The position numbers were made by a program, and so were the translations under genes. 64,000 bases of DNA, from assembly GCA_944351415.1 (NCBI GenBank), contig CALVPQ010000001.1, positions 13,540-77,539 of the forward strand, given 5' to 3'. The DNA comes from an uncultured Clostridia bacterium. GTDB lineage: Bacteria > Bacillota > Clostridia > Christensenellales > UBA1242. A model generated the notes under the pieces. That model was not told where the DNA came from and ran no database searches. It saw only the letters and a list, made by a program, of their open reading frames with translations. Of this stretch, positions 1-26,460 are shown piece after piece; positions within the stretch are counted from its first letter, which is position 1; each line of letters starts with the position of its first letter.

Positions 1-828
1 AGTTTAGAAAATAAATTTTCAAGAAAAAATATGCTTCACCCTAATAGACATACAGAAGAAGAGATAAAACATATTAAAGATTTGATTAAAAGAAATCCAC
101 ACATAGGACTTAATGAGTTGTATGGTAAATTAAGGCTATACTATGCTTATAATCGAAATCCTGCAAGCCTATATAGATTTTTGAGAAAACATGGTTGGTA
201 TGCTGAAGTAAAAAAGAATACTAAGTATATTCCGCAACCTTATGACACTCCAATTCATTTAGGTGAAAAGTGGCAACTTGACGTTAAGTATATCCCTAAA
301 AATTGTTATGTTGGAGAGTTTAAAGAAGAACGGAAATTTTATCAATATACAGTTATAGATGAAGCTTCGAGAGAAAGATTTATTTATCCTTACTTAGAAC
401 AAAATGCAACTTCCACTGTTGATTTTATTAAAAGAGCTATTGTTTATTTTGGTTACAAGCCTAATATCATACAAACTGATAATGGTGCAGAATTTACATT
501 TATAAGACAAACAAAACACGACCAAGAACATTTGTTTGATAAGTTTTGCAGACTTAACAATATAGAGCATAAAACAATAAAACCCAGAACTCCAAGGCAT
601 AATGGTAAAGTGGAACGTTCACATAGAAGTGATAATGAAAGATTTTATAAATGGTTAAAATTTTACTCTTATGATGATTTATTAAAACAAATGCAGGCTT
701 ATCTTAAACGTTCTAATAATATACCGACATCTGTGCTTTATCCCAGAAATGGTAAAAAGACAATATGGCTTTCTCCAATAGAAAAGCGAAAAGAACTGTT
801 GCTTTTAGACTGGGGTATTATTGAATGA
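1..828 (+). mobile_element. IS transposase gene (DDE / rve integrase-core type, IS481/IS3-like), 5' end cut by the window edge
   Basis: ORF 31..828. The frame stays open back to nt 1 (SLENKFSRKN precedes the listed Met), so the gene starts off-window. The strings YTVIDEASRE, IQTDNGAEFT and PRTPRHNGKVERSHR fit the D..D..E core of rve transposases. Confidence 0.8.
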
Positions 829-1219
829 TAAGACTTTATTTACCTTTATTATTTTATTATAATTTAATAAATAAAAAACTATGGTAACTTACCATAGTAT
901 TTATCATACAAAAATTTTGCGACTTCCCCTAGGGGAAGTATTTATTTTTATTATAAACATACTTATTTTTATTTATCTTTAATAAAATTTAATTTTTTTT
1001 AAAAAACTTGTGACAAACAGTTGACAATTCTTCAAATTAAAAAATTTAAGTTTTTAAAACTTTTTATATTTTATAGTTTAAAATATATACTTTAGCTACA
1101 TTTTATCTTTAAATATGCTAATTTACTTTAAAATTCGCACTGTTTTTGATATAATAAACTTGTGTGTGGAATTTGCACACCTTATTGATAACATACACTG
1201 AATTGAACTGGGAGTGATT

Positions 1220-2362
1220 ATGAAAATTGTTATTGTTTGTGATATATTAGGTAAGAAAAATAATGGAACAACCATTGCTTCTTATAATCTTATAAATTTT
1301 TTAAAAGCAAAAGGACATGATGTTAAAGTTATATGCTGTGACAACGATAAAGATGAAAATCAAGATGGTTTTGTGCTTTTAAGTCAAGTCAACCTTGGAC
1401 CACTGAATAAAATCGTGGAAAGAAATGGTGTAAGCTTGCCTTGCAGAGATAAAAAAATTATTATGAACACCATTAAAGGCTGTGATATTGTGCATATTAT
1501 GTTGCCTTTCCCTGTGGGTATAACCGCCTGCAAAATAGCTAAAAAACTTGGTAAGCCTGTTACTGCTGGTTTTCATTGCCAAGCAGAGCTTATTTCAAGT
1601 CATCTTGGACTTATGAACTGCGAGCCAGTTAATAGGCTTATCTATAAAGAATTTTATGAAAAACTTTATCAGTTTTGTGATGCAATACATTATCCAACTC
1701 AGTTTATTTGCGACGTGTTTGAAAATATTGTTGGAAAAACCGAACACTATATAATTAGCAACGGCGTTAATAAAGATATGGAGTTTAAAAAATGCGATAA
1801 ACCAGAAGAGTTCAAAGATAAGTTTGTTATTTTAAGCACTGGCAGGCTTTGCAAAGAAAAGGCACATATCATTCTCTTTAAAGCTGTGGCTCAAAGCAAA
1901 TATAACAAAAATATACAACTTATTATTGCAGGTCAAGGCCCACTTAAAAAAAAGCTAGAGAAATTTGCTGATGAAAAAATTGCTAATAAACCTATTATCA
2001 AATACTTTTCAAGAGAAGAAATGCTTGAACTTGTGAACTTCTCTGACCTCTATGTTCACCCTGCTGAAGCCGAACTTGAAGGTATTGCCTGTTTAGAGGC
2101 GATTGTTTGTGGGCTGGTTCCGGTGGTTTCTAATTCCAAAAAAAGTGCTACAAAAGACTTTGCTATAACTGATAAAAATTTATTCCAATACGACAATCCT
2201 CAGGAACTTGCTAGCAAAATTGACTATTGGATTGAACACCCTGAAGAAAAAGAAGAGTTTAGAACAAAATATATCCAATTTGGAGAAAAGTTTGAACAAG
2301 AAGAATGTATGAATAAAATGGAAGAGATGTTTTTGGAAACTCTAAATAAAAGAATAAAATAA
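1220..2362 (+). CDS. Family-4 (GT-B) glycosyltransferase
   Basis: GGGAG RBS lies 6 nt before the ATG at 1220; the listed start at 1214 is a GTG inside the RBS. The C-terminal EX7E-type region YVHPAEAELEGIACLEAIVCG and the N-terminal KIVIVCD...GTT fit GT4 enzymes. Confidence 0.75.
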   Translation: MKIVIVCDILGKKNNGTTIASYNLINFLKAKGHDVKVICCDNDKDENQDGFVLLSQVNLGPLNKIVERNGVSLPCRDKKIIMNTIKGCDIVHIMLPFPVGITACKIAKKLGKPVTAGFHCQAELISSHLGLMNCEPVNRLIYKEFYEKLYQFCDAIHYPTQFICDVFENIVGKTEHYIISNGVNKDMEFKKCDKPEEFKDKFVILSTGRLCKEKAHIILFKAVAQSKYNKNIQLIIAGQGPLKKKLEKFADEKIANKPIIKYFSREEMLELVNFSDLYVHPAEAELEGIACLEAIVCGLVPVVSNSKKSATKDFAITDKNLFQYDNPQELASKIDYWIEHPEEKEEFRTKYIQFGEKFEQEECMNKMEEMFLETLNKRIK

Positions 2363-5079: not shown

Positions 5080-5164
5080 ATCTAATTTCCTTTTAAAAAT
5101 AATGTTCTAAAACCCCTTGTAGTTCTTAATTTTTTCAAAATATTTTAACAAATGTATAACACAC

Positions 5165-5986
5165 TTACCTTATAAAATACTTTTCCATATAAAAGTATGA
5201 CCATGGTTTTGCATCTAAATCCGGCGGACAAGCAAAGGTCATTTTTTGTTTTGTGACTGGGTGAACAAACTCAAGCCGTCCAGCCCACAAGCCAAGATTA
5301 TTTGACTGTTTTGTCTTATCTCTGCCATATTTATTGTCGCCATAAAGCGGACAGTTGATACCTGCAAACTGCACTCTTATTTGATGCGACCTGCCACTGA
5401 CAAGTTTTACTTCGACAAGTGCAAGTTTATCTTTCGTTTGAAGAACCTTGTAGTTAAGCTCTGCTCGTTTTGCCCCTTGTTCACTTTGTGGTGCGAACCT
5501 GACAATATTGTTTTTTTCGTCCTTCTTGAGATAATTTATAAGGGTATTACTTCTAAGCTGTGGCACTTTTGTTGTGACTGCATAGTAAACTTTATGCATC
5601 TGGTTATTTCTTATTTGAGCTGAAAGTCGCTCTGCTGCCTTTGATGTTCTTGCAAAGACCATTATTCCACCTGTTGGCCTATCTAAACGATGAACAAGTC
5701 CAATAAAAGCTTCTCCTTCTTTATTATATTTTTCTTTTATATATTTTTTCACTTTAGTAAGCATATCTTCATCGCCACTTTTATCAGCTTGAGAAGGAAT
5801 ATTTTGTGGTTTGATTACAACAACTATATGGTTATCTTCGTATAGCACAATAAGTTCTGATTTTTTTGTAACTTTGCTCTGCTCTACATCTTTTAAACTT
5901 TCATTTTGTGATTGTTTTTCTTGAGTTATTTTTTCATTACTTTGCGATTTTTCTAAATTTTTTGTTATATTTTCATTTATTTCCAT
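5165..5986 (-). CDS. RluA-family pseudouridine synthase with a low-complexity N-terminal extension
   Basis: Catalytic motif HRLDRPTGG plus SGRSHQIRVQ; 10-nt overlap with the upstream gene. Confidence 0.85.
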   Translation of the reverse strand: MEINENITKNLEKSQSNEKITQEKQSQNESLKDVEQSKVTKKSELIVLYEDNHIVVVIKPQNIPSQADKSGDEDMLTKVKKYIKEKYNKEGEAFIGLVHRLDRPTGGIMVFARTSKAAERLSAQIRNNQMHKVYYAVTTKVPQLRSNTLINYLKKDEKNNIVRFAPQSEQGAKRAELNYKVLQTKDKLALVEVKLVSGRSHQIRVQFAGINCPLYGDNKYGRDKTKQSNNLGLWAGRLEFVHPVTKQKMTFACPPDLDAKPWSYFYMEKYFIR

Positions 5987-20268: not shown

Positions 20269-20489
20269 AATTTATTTAACTCCTTATAGTCTTTTATCTT
20301 TTCAGTTAAAAGACTATTAAAGTATATTGCATTTCGCTTTTATTACGAATATGAAAAATGCAATAAAAATGTGAAAAAGCTTAAACTTTGTCGTTTTTTG
20401 ACGCTTTACATATTTATTTTAGCAAAATATTTGATTTTTTCAAATTATATTTCAATATTTTAAAGTTTTAGGCAATTTTTATTGATTAA

Positions 20490-20520
20490 AATAAAAAAGT
20501 TATGAAAAACTCATAACCTT
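20490..20520 (-). terminator. Intrinsic terminator after topA
   Basis: Minus strand ggttatga-gttt-ttcataac followed by ttttttat. Confidence 0.65.
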
Positions 20521-22608
20521 TTATGACTGTTGTTCATTATCTTTTATAAAGTCACATTCATTATTTGAACACTTTATTTTTTTGCCCTTTATGACAAGTG
20601 GACTTGAACATTTTGGACATTTATCCCCTGTTGGAATGTCCCAACTCATAAACTTGCAGTCTGGATAGCGAGAGCATGAATAGAAAATTTTGCCCTTCTT
20701 GCTTCTTCTCTCTGTCATATCACTGCCACATTCTGGGCACCTGCCAACTTTTTTGACAACTGTTTCAAGTGGACGAGCATTTTTGCATTTTGGAAAATTA
20801 GAACAAGCCAAAAACTCGCCATATCTTCCATTTCTTATAACCATTTTCCCGCCACACTTTTCACAGATTATATCAGTTTCTTTTGGCGGTTCTTTCATGG
20901 TAAGTGAACTTGCATCTGCCCTGCCAAGTAGCCCCTCAAAGCCATTCCAAAAGTTAGATACAACTGTATGCCAATCCTCATCTTTGCTTGCAATATCATC
21001 AAGGCGTTGTTCCATAAATGCAGTAAATTTAACATTTATCACACTTGAAAAGAATTTCTCAAGGTATGTTGTTATTTTTCTGCCAAGTTCTGTTGGCTTT
21101 AAATAACGTCCTTCTTTTTCAGTGTAATGTCTTGATGCAAGCACTGTGATTGTTGCAGCATAAGTTGCAGGTCTGCCAATTCCCTTTTCTTCCATTGCTT
21201 TAACAAGGCTTGCTTCTGTGTATCTTGCTGGTGGTTTTGTGAACTTCTGCTCTGGTGTAAGTTTACTTAGAGTTAGATCTTCCCCTTCTTCAAGTTTTGG
21301 AAGTTTCCCTGCCATGCCTTCGTTTTTCTCTTCTTCAACAAACTCTTTATATACTTTGGTATAACCTGGAAACTCCATTGTTTTGCCTGTTACTTTAAAG
21401 CCATAATCTGCACAATCAAAATTTACCGATACATTTGAGTATTCAGCTTCGCTCATCTGACTTGCTAAAAAACGCTCGTAAATCAGTTTATAAAGCCTAT
21501 AGTTATCACTGGATAAAGTTTCTTTTGCCATGTCTGGTGTGATGTCCATTGTGATAGGTCTGATTGCCTCGTGTGCATCTTGAGCATTTTCTTTTGTGTG
21601 ATATATATTAGGTTTTTCTGGAACAAACTCACTGCCATACTTCTCTTTTATAAAGTCAAGGCAGGCATTTTGTGCGTCCGTTGACACACGAACAGAGTCT
21701 GTTCTTATATATGTGATAAGGGCTATCTTGCCCTCACCCTTAATATCTACTCCCTCATAAAGTTGCTGTGCCGAAGATGTTGTTCGGCTTAGGCTCATGC
21801 CAAGTTTATTAAGTGCATCTTGTTGCATAGTTGATGTTGTGAATGGTGCTGGGGCATGAGATTTCGTTTTACTCTTCTTGATTTCTGTTATCTTAAAATT
21901 TTTGTCTTTTATATCTTCTATAAGTTTATCAACTTCTTGTTTGCTTTTTGGAACAAACTTCTTCTTTTTATATGTTGCAAGAGTGGTCTTTATTTCACTG
22001 GTATCCTTTTTTAAAAAGGCATTAACCGTCCAAAACTCTTCTGGAACAAAGTTTTCAATCTCTTTTTCTCTATCAACAACAAGTTTTAAGGCAACTGATT
22101 GAACACGACCTGCGCTAAGCTTTGGAGCTATCTTCTTGCATAAAATTGGAGAAAGTTTATAACCCACAATCCTATCAAGCACTCTTCTTGCCTGTTGAGC
22201 ATTAACAAGTTTAATGTCTATTTTTCTAGGGTGCTCTAGTGCTTTTGATACCGCTTTTTTTGAAATTTCGTTGAACTCTATTCGGCAGGTTTTATCTGGC
22301 TTAAACCCTAGAATATTTGCAACATGCCAAGAAATTGCTTCACCTTCACGGTCTGGGTCGGTTGCAATCAACACCTCGTCTGCTTGGGCTGCTTTCTTTT
22401 TGAGCTCGTTTATAAGCTCTTTCTTATCTGGCACAATTTCATATTTTGGTTCAAAGTTATTTTTTAAATCTATACCAAAAGATTTTTGCGGAAGGTCTCT
22501 TATATGTCCCTTTGTTGCAAAAACTTCATATCCACTTCCTAGATACTTTTTTAATGCCTCTCTTTTAAATGGTGATTCAATTATAACTAATTTCAATTTG
22601 TCCTCCAT
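20521..22608 (-). CDS. topA: DNA topoisomerase I
   Basis: Toprim (VIIESPFK, DPDREGEAISWH), catalytic Tyr region ITYIRTDS, and C-terminal Cys4 zinc ribbons (CEKCGG...C..FPKC and others). Confidence 0.95.
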   Translation of the reverse strand: MEDKLKLVIIESPFKREALKKYLGSGYEVFATKGHIRDLPQKSFGIDLKNNFEPKYEIVPDKKELINELKKKAAQADEVLIATDPDREGEAISWHVANILGFKPDKTCRIEFNEISKKAVSKALEHPRKIDIKLVNAQQARRVLDRIVGYKLSPILCKKIAPKLSAGRVQSVALKLVVDREKEIENFVPEEFWTVNAFLKKDTSEIKTTLATYKKKKFVPKSKQEVDKLIEDIKDKNFKITEIKKSKTKSHAPAPFTTSTMQQDALNKLGMSLSRTTSSAQQLYEGVDIKGEGKIALITYIRTDSVRVSTDAQNACLDFIKEKYGSEFVPEKPNIYHTKENAQDAHEAIRPITMDITPDMAKETLSSDNYRLYKLIYERFLASQMSEAEYSNVSVNFDCADYGFKVTGKTMEFPGYTKVYKEFVEEEKNEGMAGKLPKLEEGEDLTLSKLTPEQKFTKPPARYTEASLVKAMEEKGIGRPATYAATITVLASRHYTEKEGRYLKPTELGRKITTYLEKFFSSVINVKFTAFMEQRLDDIASKDEDWHTVVSNFWNGFEGLLGRADASSLTMKEPPKETDIICEKCGGKMVIRNGRYGEFLACSNFPKCKNARPLETVVKKVGRCPECGSDMTERRSKKGKIFYSCSRYPDCKFMSWDIPTGDKCPKCSSPLVIKGKKIKCSNNECDFIKDNEQQS

Positions 22609-22642
22609 TTGCGGATTATCCGCTTACTATCGTGTGCCTTAG

Positions 22643-22913
22643 GCACTTTACTATCATTCAGTATGTTTGTAACTTCTAGTTTATAACTTCATAAGAGCAT
22701 TGATTACTCTTATTTTTGAAACTTACTTGGTTATGCTAAATAATTCACCCTTTATGGGGCCCCTTAATTAGAAGGTAAGCTTTTGCCCACAAAGTCAAAG
22801 ACTTTGCAGGTGCCAAGGTCGGGAAACCAAAATTCTGGCACTTAAGAGAGCGGCCATTCAATATATACTTTCAGACCACTTTGCCGGGCAGTCGCTCAGC
22901 ACTTATGCTGGTG
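22643..22913 (-). ncRNA. Unassigned structured-RNA candidate between dprA and topA
   Basis: It contains no ORF and looks markedly G+C-richer than the flanks. Several hairpins are present: gtgcca...tggcac, ctgcaaagtc-ttt-gactttgtgg with G-U pairs only on the minus strand, ataagag...ctcttat, gtgcc-tta-ggcac and gcgga-tta-tccgc. Confidence 0.35.
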
Positions 22914-23999
22914 TCACCCTAGTGTTATCATGCCACCTGGCAACCTTTTTATTATCCCACGAATTTCAAGCGTTGTCAAATAAGTGTTAAATAGACTTAT
23001 ATTCAATCCACAATTTTTTGTTAAATAGTCTATATCTTTCATACCATCTTCAAGCAGTGATACGATTGCTTGCTCCTCTATTGAAAGCTGTTGAGCCATC
23101 TTTTTTGAACTTTTTTCTTCAATATTATAATCTTGCAGTATATCTGATGGCTTTGTTACGCACTGAGCCTGCCCTGTTTTGATAATCTCGTTAGTAAGTT
23201 CACTTGCCAAACTATCAATATTGCCTGGAACTGAATATACGTTTTTACCATAGTCTAGTGCAAAATCCTTTGTATGCATTGTTCCGCTTTTCATGCTTGC
23301 TTCGGTTATTAAAACTCCATCACTTAGCCCGGCAAGTATACGATTTCGTTGTGGAAAAGAATATTTGGTAGCTTTTTTATTTGGGCTATACTCACTTAAA
23401 AGCAAACCTTCCTTTGCTATTTCATCTGCAAGTGATTGATGCTCTGCTGGGTAAATTTCATGTAGCCCTGAACCAAGCACGGCAATAGTTTTGCCACCAA
23501 CCTCTAAACATTTTCTATGTGCTATACTATCAACACCATAAGCAAGTCCACTTACAATAACAACCCCTGCAGATGCAATATCTTTAACAAGCCTTTCTGT
23601 TGCCATTCTTCCATAAGCGGTAGGTTTCCTTGTGCCAACAACGGCAAGTGATTGGTGCTTAAGTAAGCTTATATCACCTTTGCAAAATAAGAAAAATGGT
23701 GCATCGCTTAGTTCTTTTAGTTTTTCTGGATAATTTAAACTATATTTTGTAAGCAAGATTATATCATCATTTAAAAGGTTGTTATAATAATTTTTTATAC
23801 GTGTTAGGTCTGCCCTTTCCTTCATTTTTTCATGATTTTCTTTTGAAAGCACTTTTTCATTAAACTTATTTTTACAAAAATGTTTTAAAGAAATATCATC
23901 TCCAAGTGCTTCTATAATCTGTTGATTTTTTAAATATGTATTATCAAACATTGATAAAAATATTAAAAAATTTTTTATTTCACTGTCTATTTCTATCAT
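22914..23999 (-). CDS. dprA: DNA processing protein DprA (Smf)
   Basis: GLAYGVDSIAHR and FPQRNRI motifs. The start is uncertain: ATG at 23999 or GTG at 24038. Confidence 0.85.
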   Translation of the reverse strand: MIEIDSEIKNFLIFLSMFDNTYLKNQQIIEALGDDISLKHFCKNKFNEKVLSKENHEKMKERADLTRIKNYYNNLLNDDIILLTKYSLNYPEKLKELSDAPFFLFCKGDISLLKHQSLAVVGTRKPTAYGRMATERLVKDIASAGVVIVSGLAYGVDSIAHRKCLEVGGKTIAVLGSGLHEIYPAEHQSLADEIAKEGLLLSEYSPNKKATKYSFPQRNRILAGLSDGVLITEASMKSGTMHTKDFALDYGKNVYSVPGNIDSLASELTNEIIKTGQAQCVTKPSDILQDYNIEEKSSKKMAQQLSIEEQAIVSLLEDGMKDIDYLTKNCGLNISLFNTYLTTLEIRGIIKRLPGGMITLG

Positions 24000-24096
24000 T
24001 AATTTCCAACCTTTTAAGACTTTTAGACTCTTTAACACTAAATTTTAACTAAAAAACAAGCAATTTACAAATATTTTTGCATTTTTTTTGAAATTT

Positions 24097-25632
24097 TTAG
24101 TTATTCCAATATTTTCTATCAAGTGTTCTATAAGAAATTGCTTCAGCAACATGGCGGGCTTCAATATTCTCGCTGCCGTCTAAATCAGCAATTGTTCTTG
24201 CAACTTTTAGAATTTTATCATGAGCACGTGCAGAGAGTTTTAGCCTATCAAATGCATTTCTGAGCATATTATCACCCATAGCATCAAGCTTACAATATTT
24301 TTTTGTCATGGCTGGGGTCATCTTTGCATTACAATATATTTTCTCCCCCTTATAGCGCTCAAGTTGCATCTGTCTTGCCCTGTCAACTCGCTTCTTTATA
24401 TCTGCTGAACTTTCTTCCTGCTGTTCACTTTTAAGCTGGTCATAGGTGACATTATCAACTTCAATATGTATGTCAATCCTATCCATTATTGGCCCTGACA
24501 ATTTTGAAAGATATTTTGATATTTGACCTGGCGAGCAGTGACACTCTTTATCTTTTGAACCATAGTTGCCACACGGACATGGATTCATGCTTGCAATTAA
24601 AGTAAATGAAGCCGGATATGTTATTGTGGCATTACTTCTTGCAACTGTGATAACACCATCTTCAAGTGGTTGACGGAGAGTTTCTATTGTGTGGCGTGAA
24701 TACTCTGGAAACTCGTCAAGAAATAAAACTCCATGGTCCGCAAGGGATATTTCACCTGGCTTGCTGTTTGCACCACCACCTGTTAAACTGACTGTGCTTG
24801 CTGTGTGATGTGGACTTCTGAATGGTCTTGTTGAAACTATACCTTGTTTTAAGTCTAGTTCCCCTGCAATTGAATGTATTTTTGTTACTTCAAGCGCTTC
24901 TTCAAAGGTCAAATCCGGCAAAATAGACGGAAAGCATTTTGCAAGCATACTTTTTCCGCTTCCTGGTGGCCCTATCATTAAAAGATTGTGCCCACCTGCA
25001 GCGGCAATCTCTAGGGCACGTTTTGCCATTGCTTGACCTTTAACATTTGAAAAATCCATGCCACTTGTGGAAGATGTGCGTAAAACATTATAATCACAAG
25101 TCTCTATTGGCTTTAATTTTTTATCGCCACGTAAGAACTCCACAGTTTCAATAAGCGACTTAACACAATAAACCTCTATACCTTCAATATAACTTGCTTC
25201 AATTTTATTTGCATAAGGCACAATAAATTTTCTAAATCCAAGTTTTCTTGCTGATATTAGAAGTGGTAAAACACCACGCACTTGTTTAACTGAACCATCA
25301 AAAGAAAGCTCACCAACATAAACGTATTCCCCTTCATTCTTAATTTTGTTCTCATCATTACATGATAAAATAGATACTGCAATAGCAAGGTCATAGAGTG
25401 CACCTTCCTTTTTTATATCAGCAGGTGCTAGATTTATTGTTATTCTTTTTATTGGATATTCAAATCCACTATTTTTTATTGCTGAGCGAACTCTTTCCTT
25501 TGCCTCCTTAATTGCAGTATCTGCAAGCCCGACGATTTCAAAATGTGGCAGACCATTGCTGACATCTGTTTCAACATCAATAGGTTCACCTTCTATTCCT
25601 TTAAGCCCAAAGCTTTTAACTTTAGCAAGCAT
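24097..25632 (-). CDS. comM: YifB/ComM-family Mg-chelatase-like AAA+ ATPase
   Basis: Walker A GPPGSGKSMLAK, LFLDEFPE, and an N-terminal Lon-like domain; 511 aa. Confidence 0.9.
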   Translation of the reverse strand: MLAKVKSFGLKGIEGEPIDVETDVSNGLPHFEIVGLADTAIKEAKERVRSAIKNSGFEYPIKRITINLAPADIKKEGALYDLAIAVSILSCNDENKIKNEGEYVYVGELSFDGSVKQVRGVLPLLISARKLGFRKFIVPYANKIEASYIEGIEVYCVKSLIETVEFLRGDKKLKPIETCDYNVLRTSSTSGMDFSNVKGQAMAKRALEIAAAGGHNLLMIGPPGSGKSMLAKCFPSILPDLTFEEALEVTKIHSIAGELDLKQGIVSTRPFRSPHHTASTVSLTGGGANSKPGEISLADHGVLFLDEFPEYSRHTIETLRQPLEDGVITVARSNATITYPASFTLIASMNPCPCGNYGSKDKECHCSPGQISKYLSKLSGPIMDRIDIHIEVDNVTYDQLKSEQQEESSADIKKRVDRARQMQLERYKGEKIYCNAKMTPAMTKKYCKLDAMGDNMLRNAFDRLKLSARAHDKILKVARTIADLDGSENIEARHVAEAISYRTLDRKYWNN

Positions 25633-25776
25633 TATTTTCCCCTTTTATTTATGATTATAATAAAAAGTCTGTTATTTTACAAATAAATTACTTTATTTTA
25701 AAATTATAAAAAAATAAAAGACCTTCATTTAGATGAAAATCTTTTTTAAAATCTGATAAATATTTAAAACATCTTT

Positions 25777-26460
25777 TTATTCTCTTGATTGTTTTTCTTT
25801 AATCCTTAATTTTTTTAAATTTTCTTTTTCTTCTTTGCTGACTCTATATGAATCGCAAACTTTTTGTATTGTTTTATTCCTTACAAAGGCATCATCAAGG
25901 TTTTGCAAAAATTTATACATAAAATTATAATCATAAATAAAAGCTTCGCTATAGCACCATGCCTTAGCCATTTTCACATAATAGTCTTGATTTTTAACTT
26001 TATCAATTTCAGTTATAACATTTTTTAAGTTATCTTTTAGTTGGAACCTTAAAAGCCATACAATACCAAATCTAATTTCATAAGGCTCTTCACTCTTAAG
26101 TAGAGAGTAGAAAAATTCTTTTTCGTTTTCAAAGCCTTTAAGTCTTACAACTATAGTGTCGCACGCACCCCAATTATCAATAAAAGGAAGTAGAAATTTA
26201 AGCAAATTTATCTTTTCTTTTATTGGCAACTTTGAATAAACAATAAAAAAGCCTGAAAGAACAATTTCCTCATAGTTATCTCGTGGCAATTGATAGAAAT
26301 CTACATCAATTTTTACCAGCTTTTTTGCAAAATTTTCAAGTGTTTTTGTTTTGATGCCATTAATTTCATATTTGGTGCTGATTATTCCCATATCAAATAT
26401 AACCTTTTTTGCATCTCCCTCTTGCTTAATAAAATCTTTTATCATTTCACTTACTTGCAT
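25777..26460 (-). CDS. DNA alkylation repair (AlkD-like HEAT-repeat) protein
   Basis: NWGACDTIV and WLLRF strings are typical of this family. The start is set at the ATG at 26460, after AGGTGA. Confidence 0.55.
   Translation of the reverse strand: MQVSEMIKDFIKQEGDAKKVIFDMGIISTKYEINGIKTKTLENFAKKLVKIDVDFYQLPRDNYEEIVLSGFFIVYSKLPIKEKINLLKFLLPFIDNWGACDTIVVRLKGFENEKEFFYSLLKSEEPYEIRFGIVWLLRFQLKDNLKNVITEIDKVKNQDYYVKMAKAWCYSEAFIYDYNFMYKFLQNLDDAFVRNKTIQKVCDSYRVSKEEKENLKKLRIKEKQSRE

Follow-up and report, generated by a model that had tools for sequence, protein, structure and literature searches.

The stretch of approximately 300 nt that separates dprA from topA in the genome of an uncultured Clostridia bacterium (designated G000 in our work) is considered, with a probability of roughly 0.72, to be an insertion confined to a small clade and composed of decayed modules of a lineage-specific repeat, which is most likely carried as a tolerated passenger. 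The locus lies within a contiguous stretch of 64,000 nucleotides (“the window”) that was analyzed at its full length, and to which all coordinates refer unless another contig or locus is named. Read along the minus strand, the order of modules is an A unit directly after the dprA stop codon, then the 3’ half of a larger element, and finally two units ending in UAA-loop hairpins.

The spacer is flanked upstream by dprA (22914..24038, minus strand), whose TGA stop codon (22914..22916, minus strand) is supported by C-terminal codons that align codon for codon with those of relatives, and the insert starts immediately 3’ of this codon (22916-22914). The topA gene is also located on the minus strand, where it is listed as an ORF from 22608; given a TTG start (see below), the spacer extends to about 22597. 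The original prediction for this region, which proposed either a structured non-coding RNA (6S-like or novel) or a regulatory leader of topA, had described the spacer as being devoid of any ORF of 60 codons or more, and indeed the only one comprises 38 codons (22745..22861, minus strand). The G+C enrichment that it reported is equally evident, with a value of 0.487 at 22775-22924 (the highest within the surrounding 6 kb) versus 0.17-0.21 for the spacers nearby (20300-20524, 23825-24124 and 25625-25849). All of the stems that it listed are present in the minimum-free-energy fold, which is predicted to form a chain of short hairpins with an energy of -87.6 kcal/mol, compared to -76.9 +/- 4.9 kcal/mol for dinucleotide shuffles (z = -2.2), 1 out of 100 of which reaches the energy of the spacer. 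Its observation that extra G-U pairs are available on the minus strand only also holds for the U-G and G-U pairs of the hairpin at 22810-22786. The comparison with Rfam that had been suggested for this region was performed, and the spacer is without a family match at the gathering score (the best hit in a permissive scan having E = 9), the SRP RNA and one tRNA being the only families recovered from the 64-kb window.

The start of topA and the end of dprA were then located in 29 other genomes of the same genus. The dprA stop codon is positioned ~5-10 nt from the topA ribosome-binding site in 26 of these 29 genomes, the other three having an unrelated AT-rich spacer of 75-150 nt. As regards the nearest relatives by TopA identity, G113 and G173 (each 96%), the spacer of the former is 48 nt in length and without similarity to the insert, while that of the latter is 320 nt in length, being composed of A units right after the dprA stop codon followed by a complete element in the opposite orientation, such that only the first module (the A unit) is held in common with the insert. 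Considering the absence of a spacer in 26 of the 29 genomes, the unrelated 48 nt in G113 and the differing content in G173, the region is therefore an insertion rather than a conserved leader or a 6S-like gene. Neither presence nor covariation of the insert was found in the orthologous dprA-topA spacers, and this lack of conservation is the outcome that the original prediction had itself named as speaking against it; the idea of a dedicated, conserved topA leader is rejected on the basis of the orthologous spacers. It follows from this comparison that the spacer gained repeat DNA within a small clade, consisting of this species and its sister species, and was remodelled afterwards. The A unit is retained in G173, and the locus has therefore held repeat DNA since prior to the split between G173 and the species analyzed here.

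The module set was recognized from a sensitive BLAST search against the genus, which returned partial multi-copy matches in G113 and G173, followed by reading of the corresponding loci and of the genome to which the window belongs. To describe the parent family, 34 copies were gathered around a conserved terminal hairpin (named M3), of which 17 were aligned (alignment A4). Intact elements range from 146 to 330 nt, and the hand-drawn structure contains the helices P1a, P1b and P2, a variable P3 hairpin, P5 and the terminal hairpin. P1a pairs the first six bases of the element with a CCUCCCAA segment and includes a conserved G-U pair, and the overall fold consists of a closed 5’ domain (P1-P2-P3) and a 3’ domain ending in the conserved hairpin. 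When this structure is imposed on A4, 91.5% of cells are paired, compared to 34-60% with slid partners; furthermore, ten pairs change on both sides and the covariation score amounts to 0.191 versus 0.086 for shuffled alignments, with 0 of 500 shuffles reaching the observed score. Optional hairpins, such as the so-called H hairpin and the A unit, each occupy a fixed insertion point of the element. The elements have a G+C content of 0.39-0.49, compared to 0.31 for the genome, and a search with Rfam (gathering and permissive) of the window and 15 related loci retrieved only tRNA and SRP RNA, leaving the elements unmatched.

The start of the elements is located 0-3 nt past the upstream stop codon in 11 of about 12 co-oriented loci (those after ychF and secA among others), and 2 nt past the CCA end of a tRNA-Glu in two loci. 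Co-orientation with the upstream gene is seen for about 14 of 22 copies, several being antisense to both neighbours. The A units occur singly or in tandem arrays of 2-4, and often directly 3’ of tRNA genes, such as tRNA-Leu(CAG) in G000 and G113, tRNA-Arg(UCG), and a tRNA-Leu on contig C27.

Within the insert, the first module is an A unit (22841..22913, minus strand), which was delineated by aligning 15 copies found in G000, G113 and G173 (alignment A2). It opens with a 5-bp hairpin (22910-22897), the sequence of which varies, and further comprises a conserved motif of the GCGAYUGUCYG type, an AU-rich stem-loop and a conserved CCGCUCUC motif. The first of these hairpins covaries in the 15-copy alignment, and RNAalifold returned no fold of the A unit past it.

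The second module (22737..22840, minus strand) corresponds to the 3’ half of the stop-codon-abutting element, truncated at its 5’ side, and was identified by a match to a covariance model of the element’s 3’ half (named R1) and by its colinearity with a copy in G173. The top match of R1 across the whole 64-kb window is 22832-22737 (minus strand) with 20.4 bits and E = 0.007, which is weak when compared to the 51-110 bits of intact copies and the 51-105 bits of the clearly matching G000 copies. The same stretch is colinear with, and over 139 nt 70.5% identical to, the G173 copy located after ychF (E = 1.2e-11 in the genome search). It contains the UUUUGGUUU segment and, as an insertion, the H hairpin; its terminal M3 hairpin (22763-22743) has diverged, and CCCGACC stands in place of the canonical CCUCCCAA. 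Everything between the first bases of the element and the P3 hairpin is missing, P1b and P2 are without their 5’ strands, P1a has lost its CCUCCCAA strand and the 3’ domain is shortened; a complete 5’ domain (P1a, P1b, P2 and P3) is thus not present. Judged by these features, this copy is a truncated and decayed derivative of the element.

The H hairpin within this module (22786..22810, minus strand), as predicted by the minimum-free-energy fold and compared among 10 homologues, has an 11-bp stem with U-G and G-U pairs and a UUU loop. In the 10 homologues 96% of cells are paired, pair 9/17 being AU in five and GC in four, and pair 4/22 is a G-U in 8 of the 10; given this retention of the G-U pair together with the AU/GC covariation, the hairpin is thus a sense-strand-specific structure. 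The following AT-rich linker (22683..22736, minus strand), for which no homologue was found, folds into a local 7-bp hairpin (22712-22706 : 22697-22691). Finally, 22611..22682 (minus strand) is occupied by two so-called M5 units, in each of which a conserved lead of the ACGAUA type precedes a hairpin of 5 bp and a UAA loop (hairpins at 22646-22634 and 22623-22611). Over 52 nt this region shares 90% identity with the terminal part of the G113 array located after tRNA-Leu(CAG), and similar units of ~50 nt are repeated 5’ of a promoter in contig C21 of G000 and contig C43 of G173.

The distribution of the family was assessed with three types of query. The M3 pattern matched 6 of 154 genus genomes, with a reversed control pattern matching 0, and gave two matches, at chance level only, in 400 genomes across the order. 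A composite motif, consisting of the conserved CUCCCA segment and the M3 hairpin, was scanned over 185,579 species genomes and was found in three uncultured-Clostridia MAGs only, plus two matches in unrelated phyla that we take to be due to chance. The R1 model yielded a best E below 1e-13 in each of nine strong-carrier genomes, whose strong copies number 6 in G000, 11 in G010, 7 in G074, 2 in G096, 21 in G100, 15 in G113, 4 in G127, 9 in G133 and 11 in G173. At E <= 0.001 the model matched 29 of 151 genus genomes, about 20 of which, beyond the strong carriers, are weak. Carriers are interleaved with non-carriers when ordered by TopA identity, and the distribution is therefore patchy. According to these searches the family is restricted to some nine species of a single genus, with 4-21 copies per genome, and is practically absent elsewhere. 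This composite repeat family is apparently unpublished.

Evidence regarding conservation and turnover was obtained from sites that are orthologous among carriers. The copy located after secA is orthologous in G000, G113 and G173, and between the latter two it differs at 3 of 176 positions, compared to 22 of 70 fourfold-degenerate sites of secA itself, the element being about 18 times less diverged than these sites; the sequence 3’ of this element is unalignable between the two genomes. The family as a whole thus shows signs of selection, and the label of passenger may be wrong for intact copies, and possibly for the copy described here. At the site matching window 5097-5168 (minus strand), a 70-nt spacer, G113 and G173 carry full elements, accompanied in G173 by three A units, whereas the window genome holds only a 19-nt relic of the terminal hairpin (5107-5125). 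At one orthologous site the G113 variant differs from that of G000 and G173 and resembles another G113 copy, which suggests conversion or replacement. As a separate observation, a 265-bp unit with an intact element is present as a perfect tandem duplicate after a gene end at C1:81568-82042 of G000, outside the window.

No vehicle for mobility emerged from the same genomes. The ends of 17 or more copies are without terminal inverted repeats, no target-site duplication is visible in the flanks of copies, and none of Y1 transposase, TnpB, IS110, DDE_Tnp_1 or reverse transcriptase is common to carriers, DDE_Tnp_1 being absent from those examined. Among five carrier genomes a gene of the rve family is present in G000 and G010 only, while tyrosine recombinases, present in all carriers examined, are not consistently associated with the elements, a single recombinase being found in G173 alongside 11 copies. 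Several specific origins were rejected on similar grounds: a derivative of IS200/IS605 (PATE) or a TnpB omega-RNA, since PF01797 and PF07282 are absent from G000, G113, G173 and G100; an IS110 bridge RNA, there being no IS110 gene in carriers; a retroelement, as reverse transcriptase is found in G113 and G100 only; and an origin from phages or plasmids, as neither the window insert, compared by blastn with phages, nor an intact copy, compared with phages and plasmids, produced a match. The window itself contains, at 262-594 (plus strand), an ORF of 328 codons that matches the rve integrase core PF00665 with 62 bits.

The expression of topA would be expected to proceed through the insert. The ATG at 22608, given as the topA start in the ORF list, overlaps the ribosome-binding site GGAGG (22605-22601, minus strand), and the real start is most likely the TTG at 22596-22594 (minus strand), as judged from alignment with relatives. 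Neither the ribosome-binding site nor this start codon is sequestered by the last hairpin of the insert, which stops 5 nt short of the ribosome-binding site. A promoter-like site, consisting of TTGACA, a 17-nt spacer and an extended -10 sequence TGnGATAAT, is located inside the 3’ end of dprA (22951..22979, minus strand), with 11 of 12 matches to the consensus plus the TG, and is likely to be the topA promoter, with a predicted start near 22944. Its hexamers are conserved in the dprA 3’ ends of the relatives examined, third codon positions included (this stretch being also coding), which suggests that an internal topA promoter within dprA is genus-wide. We infer that the insert is carried on minus-strand transcripts, which would either read through from dprA or start at this promoter, and that it would form a structured topA 5’ UTR of ~350 nt, with topA still being expressed by read-through. 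There is no credible intrinsic terminator on the minus strand of the insert; considering the absence of a convincing terminator together with the free ribosome-binding site, the insert is therefore most likely a tolerated passenger. Any effect it might have would be structural, acting on mRNA stability or processing, by analogy with what has been proposed for BOX, BIME and ERIC repeats.

A rival reading is that the family is a functional structured RNA located at the ends of coding regions and tRNAs, for instance as a protective or processing cap for 3’ ends or as a switch that might be opened by the terminating ribosome, and that the window copy, in spite of its divergence, would remain active on either the 3’ end of dprA or the 5’ UTR of topA. 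The covariation-supported, strand-specific fold with its conserved G-U pairs, the start 0-3 nt past the stop codon in 11 of about 12 co-oriented loci, the co-orientation of about 14 of 22 copies with the upstream gene, and the secA copy that is about 18 times less diverged than fourfold-degenerate sites are all in keeping with such a role. Against it stand a window copy that is deprived of the 5’ strands of P1 and P2 and of the canonical CCUCCCAA, and that scores at 20 bits, as well as several copies which are antisense to both neighbours (including the one between dprA and topA in G173), the patchy occurrence within the genus, and the orthologous site in the window where merely a terminal-hairpin relic is retained; for the dprA-topA locus we regard this reading as unlikely. 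The separate proposal that the intact elements constitute an undescribed class of functional structured RNA in small-genome gut Clostridia, maintained by purifying selection at orthologous sites and not being a selfish repeat, is put forward tentatively and with a low probability. In one conceivable mode of action the terminating ribosome would melt P1 and thereby free its 3’ strand, a CCUCC segment resembling an anti-Shine-Dalgarno sequence; conceivably, the element could alternatively cap the upstream RNA and thereby set where its 3’ end lies. A self-cleaving ribozyme of the HDV or hatchet type, with cleavage at its 5’ side, was also considered because the element starts exactly at gene ends, and is not supported, the helices being nested rather than pseudoknotted and without match to any ribozyme in Rfam.

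Co-option of the insert as a regulatory leader of topA (for example by sensing supercoiling or temperature, or by binding a protein) would fit its hairpin-rich nature and its sense-strand position between the promoter-like site and the topA ribosome-binding site, yet is rated as quite improbable: the insert is missing in G113 and in >25 further species in which this promoter-like site and ribosome-binding site are maintained, the content at the site differs in G173, there is neither a terminator/antiterminator pair nor sequestration of the ribosome-binding site, and no riboswitch family is matched. An independent small RNA gene, be it a diverged 6S RNA or a new sRNA, is highly improbable. The insert does resemble 6S RNA (RF00013) in being non-coding, structured, of a similar order of length and enriched in G+C (as are the structured RNAs of the window), and 6S was indeed undetected in the genome; nonetheless, it lacks a covariance-model match, conservation in relatives and the rod-with-bubble fold, its own fold being a chain of short hairpins rather than a rod with a central bubble, it is not bracketed by a promoter/terminator pair, and it is homologous to dispersed repeat modules. 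The accompanying check of housekeeping RNAs located RNase P (type A) and tmRNA elsewhere in the genome, whereas 6S (RF00013) was undetected in all 25 genus genomes searched (G000 and 24 others); of 16 further families belonging to this order, 14 did have it. Either 6S has been lost from the genus, or it has diverged past recognition, and since this absence is genus-wide, an insertion private to one or two species cannot account for it. The 6S-like identity that had been envisaged is accordingly abandoned, and the broader notion of a structured non-coding RNA survives in part: the region is non-coding, has a strand-specific structure and derives from an RNA-like structured family absent from Rfam, while it is no 6S-like or other housekeeping RNA gene. 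A decayed protein-coding remnant is scarcely credible, as nothing beyond the 38-codon ORF at 22745..22861 points to it, and every segment that has a homologue matches non-coding modules, whose stems vary by compensatory changes and whose indels bear no relation to a reading frame. For this locus the outcome is mainly that a false lead has been removed, there being no hidden 6S RNA or topA riboregulator in the dprA-topA spacer; the locus itself is of modest interest, its parent family being the worthier subject.

An insertion of decayed repeat modules finds its closest known analogues, as far as resemblance can be taken, in composite repeats such as pneumococcal BOX. The BOX repeat of Streptococcus pneumoniae, described together with RUP and SPRITE, is a composite interspersed repeat in which boxB is tandemly variable (Croucher et al. 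2011, PMC3049150). Like BOX, the family described here is built from distinct modules, one of which varies in tandem number (A units from 1 to 4, corresponding to boxB), has extensive secondary structure, is intergenic, is present in few closely related species, and shows slow turnover with decay at some sites. BOX lies within transcribed regions and the present family is probably placed likewise. In contrast to BOX, however, the family has neither terminal inverted repeats nor target-site duplications, no IS with matching ends and no transposase common to carriers; it is G+C-rich relative to a genome of 31% G+C, its intact element adopts a long-range closed multi-helix fold that starts at stop codons or tRNA CCA ends, and there is no sequence similarity between the two.

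The REP/BIME repeats of enterobacteria are comparable in that they are mosaics of hairpin units and linker motifs, placed 3’ of stop codons in spacers that are co-transcribed, as is presumed for the present family. Whereas the mobilisation of REPs depends on RAYT (Y1/HUH) transposases, no Y1 transposase is present in carrier genomes, the units being moreover longer and not simple palindromes. REP/BIME are known to affect mRNA stability (PMC3049150 background). MITEs, the defining features of which include terminal inverted repeats, target-site duplications and AT-richness (PMC3049150), are represented by Correia, ERIC and the bcr1 repeat of the Bacillus cereus group, and like these the repeats studied here are short, multi-copy, non-coding and highly base-paired. 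MITEs are co-transcribed with neighbouring genes, as is presumed for the present repeats; the family is, however, without the terminal inverted repeats, target-site duplications and AT-richness of MITEs. With its fold, its abutment to stop codons and tRNA ends and its conserved ortholog, the family sits awkwardly between a selfish mosaic repeat and a functional RNA. The carrier organisms have genomes of about 1 Mb, a size at which purging of non-coding DNA would be expected. If the family is functional it would represent a new kind of 3’-end RNA element, and if it is selfish it would have spread without a recognisable transposase.

Reading of the loci also revealed arrays and partial duplications related to these modules. 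Arrays in which 2-4 A units follow one another in tandem start immediately past the CCA of tRNA-Leu(CAG) and tRNA-Arg(UCG), at the very next base, as seen in G000 on contig C12 (L063:2312-2500) and contigs C5/C33 (L072:1-75, L071:1130-1272), and in G113 (L045:1735-1940). Several contigs end inside such arrays, and the copy numbers are therefore lower bounds. Pseudo-copies of tRNA 3’ ends, present once or twice after tRNA-Leu and tRNA-Glu, were found in G000 on contigs C27 (L064:3380-3690, minus strand) and C18 (L069:~920-1230, minus strand) and at the start of C3 (L073:1-200), as well as in G113 (L060:1250-1340). In each of them the T arm, in reverse complement, comes first; next are a conserved GGUUCG...GGGUUCCC segment and a hairpin of the H type, and the pseudo-copy closes with the authentic final 15-18 nt of the tRNA, CCA included. 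The conserved core is common to different tRNAs, and the flanks match the respective tRNA. At C21:13100-13700 of G000 and L061:1490-1900 of G173, three iteron-like repeats of ~50 nt with UAA-loop hairpin ends are located 5’ of a strong promoter, and are followed by a leader and a small ORF, which we tentatively read as ribbon-helix-helix-like. Contig C21 is chromosomal, since it carries sufC, sufD, fhs and holB, and in this contig an A unit is inserted into the leader hairpin, the same hairpin being intact in G173.
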